A stretch of DNA of 64,000 nucleotides from an uncultured Gammaproteobacteria bacterium (GCA_963844535.1 CAWJOP010000008.1:196801-260800), one strand, 5' to 3'. Shown: positions 11,068 through 12,269, numbered from the stretch's first letter. Notes: generated by a model not told the origin, from the sequence alone. Translations and numbers: made by a program.

Positions 11068-12269
11068 AGATGAGATTTCCTCTGGCCACGTTTAACGAAA
11101 GGGGGTTTGATTATTTCGACTGGATATAATTTACCGCGAATCTCTACTTCCCCACAGCAATTGGATTTTCGGCGTTGTTGTGAAAGCGTCTCGCCATCCT
11201 CATTTACGCAAGTAAACTCCGGTGGCTCACCGCTTTCACGCCTAGCCGAAAATCCAATTGCTGTGGGGAAGTGCTTATTTGTTACAGAGATTCTTGCCAA
11301 TGCAATTGATTTATTTAAAGTTGGCGAAAAAGTACCGCTCGTTATTTCACCTTCACCTTGTTCTTTTACTTGTACTTTTTGATGACCACGCAAAATTCCG
11401 CCGCGCTCATGCAACACAAGCCCAACTAATGCTCGTGGCACACCATTTTGTTTTTGTGTTTCTAGTGCTTTGCGGCCCATAAAATCGCGATCACCATTTA
11501 ATACTACTGTCCAAGCTAAATTGGATTCATAAGGTGTGGTCGTTTCATCCATATCTGAACCATAAAGATTTAATCCAGCTTCTAAGCGTAAAGTATCTCG
11601 CGCACCTAATCCGCAAGGCGCAAATCCTGCTTTAATTAATTGTTGCCAAAACGAAACCGCATTCTTTACAGGCAAAATTATTTCAAACCCATCTTCGCCA
11701 GTGTAACCGGTACGTGCAATAAATAACTCTCCAACTTGAATTGCATAAAAAGGCCGTAACGCTTCAAGCTCCTTAGCATTAACATCACCTAAAACAACAA
11801 GTAATTTACTGAAAGCCTCTGGCCCCTGCGCTGCAATCATTGCCAAATCAGGTCGTTCAGCTAACTGCAGATTAAAAGACTTAGCTTGTTCATTCATCCA
11901 TGCTAAATCCTTATCGCGCGTTGCCGCATTGACAATCACACGATAAAAATTAGGTTTTAACAAATAAACAATCAAATCATCAATAATGCCGCCTTGCTCA
12001 TTGAGCATGCAGCTATAAAGCGCTTTACCTGGTTTATCTAACTTAGCAACATCATTGGCTAACAAGTAACGAAGATAGTCACTCGCTTTATCGCCGCTGA
12101 CATCGACAATCGTCATATGTGAAACATCAAAAATGCCTGCGTTTTCACGAACGCTACGATGCTCATCTAGCTGCGAACCATAATGGAGCGGCATATCCCA
12201 ACCACCAAAATCAACCATTTTGGCAGCTAAATCTATATGTGTTTGATAAAGGGAAGTTCTTTGCGTCAT
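11064..12269 (-). CDS. gcvT: glycine cleavage system aminomethyltransferase T, with an in-frame ~40-aa insertion near the C-terminus
   Basis: 401 aa against the usual ~365. The N-terminal and central regions are canonical GcvT ([36 protein letters not shown]). The extra segment ..[34 protein letters not shown].. is encoded by a perfect palindromic DNA element. Confidence 0.9.
11146..11272. repeat. ~127-bp nested palindromic element inserted in-frame within gcvT
   Basis: A 28-bp perfect inverted repeat, ACTTCCCCACAGCAATTGGATTTTCGGC ... GCCGAAAATCCAATTGCTGTGGGGAAGT, encloses a second inverted repeat, GTGAAAGCG...CGCTTTCAC. The whole element lies inside the gcvT reading frame without breaking it. 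Confidence 0.65.

Follow-up and report, generated by a model that had tools for sequence, protein, structure and literature searches.

We analyzed a 64,000-nucleotide (nt) stretch of DNA from an uncultured Gammaproteobacteria bacterium (GCA_963844535.1, CAWJOP010000008.1:196801-260800), referred to here as the window, which contains a glycine-cleavage operon with a palindromic repeat inside one of its genes. The gene, gcvT, is an open reading frame (ORF) on the minus strand (11064 to 12269) that encodes a 401-amino acid (aa) aminomethyltransferase, as judged by alignment and by the Pfam GCV_T and GCV_T_C domains of its product. The palindromic element is 127 nt long and lies on the same strand at 11146 to 11272, corresponding to gcvT nt 998 to 1124, or about residues 333 to 375. 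It is bounded by two 28-nt terminal arms, the first (ACTTCCCCACAGCAATTGGATTTTCGGC, 11146 to 11173) and its exact reverse complement (11245 to 11272), which are thus 100% complementary. The 71 nt that separate them (11174 to 11244, minus strand) contain nested inner stems, specifically a 9-bp stem formed by GUGAAAGCG and CGCUUUCAC (11180 to 11188 and 11231 to 11239) and an apical stem. The gcvT frame is open through the entire element, and its translation includes the insert peptide given in the preliminary description. These features bear out a preliminary description of the locus, which had reported a ~127-bp element with 28-bp perfect arms and a nested inner repeat within the gcvT frame. The arm pair is not due to chance: shuffling the window 100 times with dinucleotides preserved gave a mean of 0.00 arm matches, compared to the two observed. 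As RNA, the coding strand of the element folds into one long hairpin of −83.1 kcal/mol, compared to −36.8 ± 3.5 kcal/mol for shuffled sequences (z = −13.1), so that the RNA fold proposed as a check in the preliminary description was indeed evident. The element has a G+C content of 51%, 14 points above the 37% of the window. Two of its six reading frames are open, one of which is read by gcvT, and it contains no ORF besides these read-through frames.

To compare the protein with its relatives, we aligned the window GcvT with 14 orthologs. The block KHFPTAIGF...SNCCGE was found in the window protein alone, coincides with the palindrome and is missing from 14 of 14 orthologs, while every invariant position of the alignment is kept. 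The two closest orthologs lack the element. One of these is the nearest relative, P0002, encoded on a JGI contig (L003) that is syntenic with the window and shares ~97% DNA identity with it over roughly 11 kb. Between a common AAT and a common GAGATT, L003 contains 18 nt (CAGACTGATTGTACGGTG) and the window 132 nt (AAGC, the 127-nt element and A), a net gain of 114 nt, or 38 codons, close to the ~40 residues near the C terminus that had first been noted. Because of these codons the window GcvT has 401 residues as opposed to 362 to 385 in the orthologs (about 362 in the L003 comparison), which accounts for its unusual length as had been proposed. The idea that the residues belong to a GcvT loop or domain that is ancestral, or specific to the lineage, draws on the fact that loop length does vary, the same loop being naturally longer in the ortholog P0007. 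However, this idea is effectively refuted by the absence of the block from all 14 orthologs, the ~97%-identical relative included, by the G+C excess of the element, and by its DNA, a palindrome with perfect arms that is homologous to a repeat present in many copies (see below). Correspondingly, no ortholog among the 14 carried the segment with nonpalindromic DNA, the finding that the preliminary description had named as evidence for an ancestral domain.

Structural comparison places the insert in a loop between the last β-strands of the GcvT C-terminal domain. Escherichia coli GcvT (3A8I, 1VLO) aligns to residues 1 to 328 and 375 to 396 of the window protein, and the insert takes the place of its loop 332 to 339. 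In an AlphaFold2 model, built from the 15-sequence alignment only, the insert (residues 331 to 370) is predicted with pLDDT (predicted local distance difference test) values <50 and lies between strands 320 to 328 and 372 to 377. The mapping suggested earlier thus points to a low-confidence modeled loop between two β-strands. A HMMER search of 1.84 billion cluster representatives revealed no other protein with the gcvT insert peptide. Three matches were returned, two of which are unrelated tandem-repeat proteins, and the third, a 2231-aa protein matching over 19 residues (E = 1e-5), was not read. Separately, a strongly divergent mosaic block in mid-gcvT (window 11726 to 11801, L003 6472 to 6610) interrupts the otherwise ~97% identity of the two genomes, with about 21 extra codons in L003, P0006 and P0012 and no involvement of the palindrome. 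We had considered the 21-codon block of L003 as a second palindromic insert and rejected it, finding no meaningful inverted repeat in this divergent mosaic segment.

The perfect 28-nt arms, their single occurrence in the window and the disagreement of another part of the operon with a second assembly could indicate an artefact of assembly or amplification, for example a fold-back chimera. Yet gcvT was recovered with the element in place in the Logan assembly of run ERR10755945 (2 mismatches over 2816 nt), and the element is homologous along its full length, center included, to a repeat family in unrelated assemblies. We therefore regard an artefact as very improbable.

This family consists of repeats of ~125 nt with the consensus TATACTCACAGCAATTGGATTTTCGGCAAGGCGCCACGAAGGCGAGCAACCGGAGTGTATGTATGATACATGAGGATTGCGAGCTGAGTGAGCAACGCAGACCGAAAATTCAAGTGCGAAGAGTATA. 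The gcvT element shares 73% identity with the consensus (blastn E = 2e-14), matches the family profile with an nhmmer E value of 4.8e-26, has the arm core in common with other copies and retains the family core ..GGCG..GAGC.ACCGGAGT.TA...A.ATGAGGAT.GCGAG.. in its center. It is thus a divergent copy, and the forward orientation of the family corresponds to the minus strand of the window, that is, the gcvT coding strand. A 20-mer matched 21 metagenome contigs, and blastn with the consensus against the DNA around those matches identified about 45 full-length copies as well as fragments. Copies are 120 to 131 nt in length with imperfect terminal inverted repeats of ~26 nt and ends of the TACTCACAGCAATTGG type, and many of the metagenome copies are >95% identical to the consensus. 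An exact 21-mer from the arm was present in 1 of 185,579 species-representative (GTDB) genomes, as an intergenic copy in a metagenome-assembled genome (MAG) labeled Pseudomonadales. In the Candidatus Rickettsiella viridis genome (AP018005), the four loci that we sampled contain 11 family copies in 83.8 kb, a density of roughly one per 8 to 12 kb.

The search for further copies proposed in the preliminary description thus came out in its favor. The exact 28-mer is single in the window, in which no second copy of the arm was found with up to 3 mismatches or by blastn with the element; relatives of the element do occur in the Pseudomonadales-labeled MAG, in the 21 metagenome contigs and in Ca. 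R. viridis. The window also harbors one decayed family relative of 145 nt (14981 to 15125, minus strand) with 16-nt perfect outer arms, detected by nhmmer (E = 4e-7 in the window, 2e-6 in L003), alignment, folding (−59.3 kcal/mol, z = −8.5) and its inverted repeat. It occupies the spacer upstream of murA, and L003 has it at the orthologous place, beside the MlaC gene. With a single copy and one decayed relative in 64 kb, the family is sparse in the window lineage. No Rfam family was found at gathering thresholds across the window, and a relaxed scan gave only plant miRNA hairpin models, far below threshold, which we rejected as generic long-hairpin matches. Collections of plasmid, phage and viral sequences gave no match. 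Searchable literature, with subscription journals outside its coverage, contained no description of the ~125-nt family, which is apparently undescribed so far, a provisional conclusion.

Several variants accompany the canonical unit. In three contigs (L009 276 to 400, L017 6848 to 6974 and L023 8914 to 9044) a sub-variant has CCGGAGTGTA in its center swapped for CCTTCGTTCC, and at L008 1968 to 2016 a 48-nt "mini" derivative joins the left arm straight to the right arm, the central hairpin being deleted. In the Pseudomonadales-labeled MAG, a different, near-perfect palindrome of ~100 nt (TAGGTAAGGCACAGGAAATAATCTACCCA...; L002 5711 to 5813) adjoins the family copy.

The family inserts at TA and duplicates it. 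Contig L022 contains a copy nested in another copy, reading GAGTG-TA-[TACTC...GAGTA]-TA-CTTAGGG as compared to GAGTGTACTTATGG in uninterrupted copies, and tandem copies in L009 have one shared TA between them. The nested and tandem arrangements thus define a mobile unit of about 123 nt (TACTC...GAGTA) plus the 2-nt duplication. Joining the flanks of every copy and searching the junctions against the other loci revealed no junction-spanning empty site. A search of about 300 kb of related loci for a transposase or a full-length parent element with family ends found neither. The arm matches in the fetched loci all belong to ~125-nt units, to fragments or to the 48-nt mini derivative, with no pair the size of an insertion sequence (IS). 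One candidate for an autonomous element, with facing arms 2.6 kb apart in L008, was rejected, as it consists of the mini derivative and a truncated copy; the gene between these arms is, by eye, presumably of the RelA/SpoT type.

The hairpin itself is maintained across the family. In an alignment of 43 copies, 95.9% of the cells of 36 predicted pairs are paired, compared to 21 to 49% in slid controls. Fifteen pairs are changed on both sides as opposed to 6.7 ± 1.5 in shuffles, a value reached in 0 of 500 shuffles, although relatedness among copies may inflate these controls. On the forward strand, two pairs are conserved as G-U (in 40/40 and 34/40 distinct copies); on the other strand they would be C-A. 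A crude ORF-context analysis of copies in genes or between codirectional genes gave 15 sense and 3 antisense calls. At least one of the antisense calls is a miscall (the copy is sense, upstream of anmK) and another, resting on a contig-edge ORF, is doubtful. All in-frame modules are forward-strand translations, and the forward frames are hydrophilic, with grand average of hydropathy (GRAVY) values of −0.7 to −1.0, whereas the open reverse frame is hydrophobic (+0.48). As an exception to the sense bias, a copy in Ca. R. viridis (L028 1507 to 1631) lies antisense between the codirectional genes mreD and mreC.

The compensatory changes, the two G-U pairs kept on the forward strand and the bias toward sense orientation are also what one would expect if the family were kept as a strand-specific structured RNA, such as a transcript-stabilizing or processing hairpin, with the gcvT copy acting in the mRNA and the peptide being incidental. 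However, the hairpin would also be expected to be conserved if a transposase required matching ends, or as a result of palindrome-templated repair. The sense bias could reflect counterselection of the hydrophobic reverse frame or antisense effects, the mreD-mreC copy provides at least one antisense example, and no Rfam family was matched. We thus consider this explanation rather unlikely.

Copies of the family are read through in frame inside other genes. In genes encoding NuoL (L024) and SufD (L019), the ORF continues through a family copy, and the protein segments flanking the module on either side are homologous to solved structures. Searches with element peptides identified an element-encoded module of ~42 residues (YSQQLDFRQGAAKMSNRSVYNIHEDCE.SGNTAENSSAKSI), which is internal in LpxK, CorC and SixA of Ca. 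R. viridis, as in the LpxK host-module junction ...IIIKEAYSQQLDFR..., and in TruB (two proteins), ProC (two proteins), a second SixA and ZipA from other assemblies. In LpxK, CorC, TruB, ProC, SixA and ZipA, homology to the host protein flanks the module on both sides. Moreover, it occupies the same site in pairs of orthologs that are 82% (TruB), 61% (ProC) and 51% (SixA) identical.

The lengths of the genic copies follow a simple rule. A consensus copy has 127 nt with both TAs and adds 125 nt net, and a canonical insertion would therefore shift the frame. The copies in nuoL, sufD and lpxK have 125 nt including both TAs, a net gain of 123 nt. The copies seen inside genes are length variants whose net gain is divisible by three and which introduce no stop codon, and the peptides of the nuoL, sufD and lpxK copies switch from one consensus frame to another part-way.

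Another set of copies is associated with gene starts. In RibF of Ca. R. viridis, and in ThiD, a deaminase and other proteins, the module lies at most 20 residues from the annotated N terminus, where extended start calls are possible. GatB of Ca. R. viridis was rejected as an internal case and left uncounted, since its module is near the N terminus and an ATG directly follows it. At the DNA level, copies lie just upstream of, or overlap, the starts of anmK (L004 3391 to 3517), serS (L011 4801 to 4926), a polysaccharide deacetylase gene (L026 13777 to 13901), ribD (L027 17940 to 18065), tusA (L029 7399 to 7522) and gatB (L028 5489 to 5611). In these cases the longest ORF or the called gene extends into the element, which lengthens the predicted N terminus, and such inflation is likely a systematic annotation artefact in these genomes.

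The gcvT copy departs from the family pattern in several respects. Both of its arms are of the left-arm type and identical over 28 nt, while the second end of most family copies is of the other, right-arm type (..CCGAAAATTCAAGTGCGAAGAGTATA). Its termini are ACTTCCC/GGGAAGT in place of the conserved TATACTC/GAGTATA, a change that is mirror-symmetric at both ends, and neither border has a TA. The element is probably a rearranged, immobile derivative, the arms of which were homogenized against each other. A copy in L009 (276 to 400) likewise has two identical left-type arms, indicating that arm homogenization occurred more than once. A canonical ...GTA-TA-G end would introduce a stop codon into the gcvT frame (GTA TAG), which may explain the absence of the right-hand TA.

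Alignment with L003 further revealed a patch of raised divergence centered on the element (11109 to 11307, minus strand). Of the 35 nt upstream of the element 9 are mismatched, as are 6 of the 37 nt downstream of it, nearly all at third codon positions, compared to zero mismatches in the preceding 158 nt and zero after gcvT nt 1161. One possibility is that homologous recombination with a more divergent allele, in which the element was already present, brought in the element together with its flanks. Alternatively, the patch may stem from palindrome-associated local mutagenesis that was filtered by purifying selection. On either account the flanking codons were under constraint.

We also inspected the state of the operon around gcvT. 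The genes gcvT, gcvH and gcvPA are intact in the window, and gcvPB (7739 to 9332, minus strand) is broken, as seen by comparison with L003 and with a contig of the Logan assembly of ERR10755945 (L025). The window gcvPB consists of three ORF pieces and, relative to L003, has one TGA nonsense codon and −1, −2 and +1 frameshifts. In the independently assembled L025, gcvPB is intact and encodes 501 aa. Apart from one mismatch at 6118, L025 equals the window outside 7967 to 10270, and all 49 differences private to the window fall within this 2.3-kb interval, at each of which (49/49) L025 agrees with L003. By a hand count, transitions among the private differences are about as frequent as transversions, and many of the differences are adjacent doublets. 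Synonymous sites next to them are untouched, and the pattern is therefore unlike ordinary pseudogene decay. The data suggest local damage, strain heterogeneity or an assembly problem.

The broken gcvPB nevertheless raises the prospect that the glycine-cleavage operon is decaying, that the insertion is not functionally tolerated and that gcvT is an as-yet-unbroken pseudogene, open by chance; with two of the six element frames open, chance read-through is not negligible. Several observations speak against this scenario, which we judge unlikely. The same sequencing run yields an intact 501-aa gcvPB, and the 49 private differences confined to 2.3 kb fit local damage or an assembly problem better than pseudogene decay. 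The remaining genes gcvT, gcvH and gcvPA are intact and the invariant GcvT residues present; the changes that flank the element are nearly all at third positions; and the ~125-nt family stays in frame in many essential genes elsewhere.

Taken together, the evidence favors, with a probability of roughly 0.85, the reading that the gcvT element is a copy of a small, nonautonomous palindromic transposable element resembling a miniature inverted-repeat transposable element (MITE). Family copies would be moved in trans by a transposase encoded elsewhere; the TA duplication makes an enzyme of the IS630/Tc1-mariner type the obvious candidate. Copies that land in genes in the sense orientation have forward frames that encode hydrophilic peptides and contain few stop codons. 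In gcvT, one such read-through copy lies in the loop between the last β-strands, adding a net 38 residues with all conserved residues in place. Its arms could have been homogenized by fold-back or arm-to-arm conversion, and the copy may have arrived in a recombination tract of ~200 nt from a more divergent allele, not by direct transposition.

A number of points weigh against this reading. The gcvT copy lacks a TA duplication (its flanks are AAGC| and |AGAG) and has noncanonical ends, and its own insertion event cannot be reconstructed, given that 127 + 5 nt replace the 18 nt of L003. The 64-kb window has just this copy and one decayed relative, and the search of about 300 kb yielded neither a transposase nor a parent element. 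The relatedness of copies noted above bears on the covariation controls. Finally, we infer functional tolerance of the GcvT insert from sequence, in a window in which gcvPB is disrupted.

By general features the family conforms to MITEs, as its copies are short, lack a transposase ORF and have terminal inverted repeats; a cognate autonomous IS was not found in the about 300 kb searched. TA duplication is seen in the family and not at the gcvT copy, and dispersed copies are seen in Ca. R. viridis and the metagenome contigs, compared to one copy and one decayed relative in the 64-kb window. The TA target duplication typical of IS630/Tc1-mariner-derived MITEs is present at the family level. The Correia elements (CREE) of Neisseria and the RUP elements of Streptococcus pneumoniae, the latter tied to IS630-Spn1, are TA-duplicating bacterial MITEs. 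The ~125-nt family resembles them in length (~100 to 155 nt), in ~26-nt terminal inverted repeats, in TA duplication and in its many copies, which are mostly intergenic and cotranscribed with neighboring genes. It differs from Correia elements in its terminal repeats (TATACTCACAGCAATTGGATTTTCGG versus TATAGCGGATTAACAAAAATCAGGAC), and systematic in-frame coding insertions are no hallmark of either Correia or RUP; the cognate IS of the ~125-nt family was not found. Two other classes were rejected. Repetitive extragenic palindromes and bacterial interspersed mosaic elements (REP/BIME), mobilized by REP-associated tyrosine transposases (RAYT), are imperfect palindromes of 20 to 40 nt with a conserved GT[AG]G head, whereas the unit here has 123 to 127 nt and TACTC ends. 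Inteins are splicing domains that span ~130 aa or more, have conserved blocks and are encoded by nonpalindromic DNA, while the GcvT block has 38 to 42 aa and is encoded by a palindrome, which likewise excludes other insertions at the protein level.

Coxiella burnetii, an intracellular gammaproteobacterium of the Legionellales, harbors MITEs, some of which also overlap annotated ORFs: QMITE1, of 300 to 400 bp with 2- to 3-nt direct repeats, and QMITE2, of 150 to 190 bp with 7- to 11-nt direct repeats and a GTAG REP (PMC5896051). Their gene overlaps are short C-terminal ones or small basic ORFs, not internal in-frame modules (PMC5896051). The family described here differs from both in its length of ~125 nt, its TA duplication and its lack of a GTAG head. 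Intragenic ERIC/IRU, BOX and Nezha-type MITEs are small palindromic repeats that are occasionally fused in frame with a host ORF (PMC10969869). In contrast to such occasional fusions, the ~125-nt module is internal in at least 8 protein families, in a small sample.

The closest parallel in behavior is with the Rickettsia palindromic elements (RPEs), of which RPE-1 to RPE-10 are known (Ogata et al. 2000, as summarized in PMC10969869). Both are palindromic repeats of 100 to 150 nt that are multicopy in an intracellular bacterium, occur recurrently in frame in unrelated housekeeping genes, encode a conserved hydrophilic module of ~40 residues and are kept at orthologous sites. Unlike the RPEs, the hosts of the ~125-nt family are Gammaproteobacteria (Ca. 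R. viridis and uncultured lineages), not Alphaproteobacteria, and the family has a clear TA duplication and a strand/orientation bias and is rare, not pervasive, in the window lineage. The host assignment of the window agrees with this distinction, as the best named relatives of its GcvT and MurA are from Gammaproteobacteria MAGs and the top solved structure is E. coli GcvT. Our data therefore support a family that is RPE-like by behavior and not RPE by host. The likeness to RPEs claimed in the preliminary description consequently holds for the in-frame, recurrent and retained behavior and, judged by host, does not extend to membership of the alphaproteobacterial RPE families; the gcvT copy is itself atypical and rearranged, and its tolerance is inferred.

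A bolder proposal, which we put forward tentatively as a possibility short of even odds, is that the family represents a second, independently evolved RPE-type system, a TA-targeting palindrome of Rickettsiella-like and other uncultured Gammaproteobacteria with sense-strand frames shaped for translation and modules kept at orthologous sites in essential enzymes (ProC, SixA, TruB). If so, retention across hosts that are only 51 to 82% identical would mean that a mobile peptide/RNA-hairpin module had been neutral over the long term or had become domesticated, as opposed to transient junk, and the forward-strand G-U pairs together with the sense bias would suggest that the RNA, too, has a function or is under constraint. 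Coding palindromic repeats are still largely treated as a Rickettsia peculiarity, and a 2024 review called similar MITE-mediated protein evolution outside Rickettsia merely "conceivable" (PMC10969869). The ~125-nt family provides a clear second example from another bacterial class, for which the unit is defined, TA duplication is demonstrated, the copies that survive in genes follow a length rule and several insertions are retained in orthologs. The family allows tractable comparisons of how selfish hairpins are tolerated in enzymes, of the co-option of peptides or RNA structures, and of distorted gene calls, such as N-terminal extensions and inflated lengths. Rickettsiella genomes have been reported to be almost free of mobile elements, with one mobile element in the dataset of a comparative-genomics preprint. 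As the ~125-nt family is dense in Ca. R. viridis, standard finders of mobile genetic elements therefore miss it.

Other features of the window were noted in passing. Six large ORFs (18706 to 21042, 29090 to 30979, 46701 to 48845, 55555 to 57282, 58320 to 59348 and 60713 to 61573) have no NCBIfam match and may encode lineage-specific proteins, and an ORF at 61749 to 63254 has a weak match, below cut-off (E = 4e-14), to the GapS1 antiphage family. Palindromic repeats are abundant in the window. Besides the element in gcvT, MITE-like long inverted repeats are found at 18166 to 18404 (arms of 73 nt, 81% complementary), at 35253 to 35410 and 26047 to 26152 (40 nt, 95%), at 26263 to 26426 (21 nt, 90%) and at 55338 to 55484 (25 nt, 96%). 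The first four of these lie between long ORFs, and among the repeats placed relative to ORFs the gcvT copy is the sole intragenic one. The repeats at 35253 to 35410 and 26047 to 26152 have a common arm core, CGTGAGGCCGTCATTGCGAG, and thus form a second repeat family.

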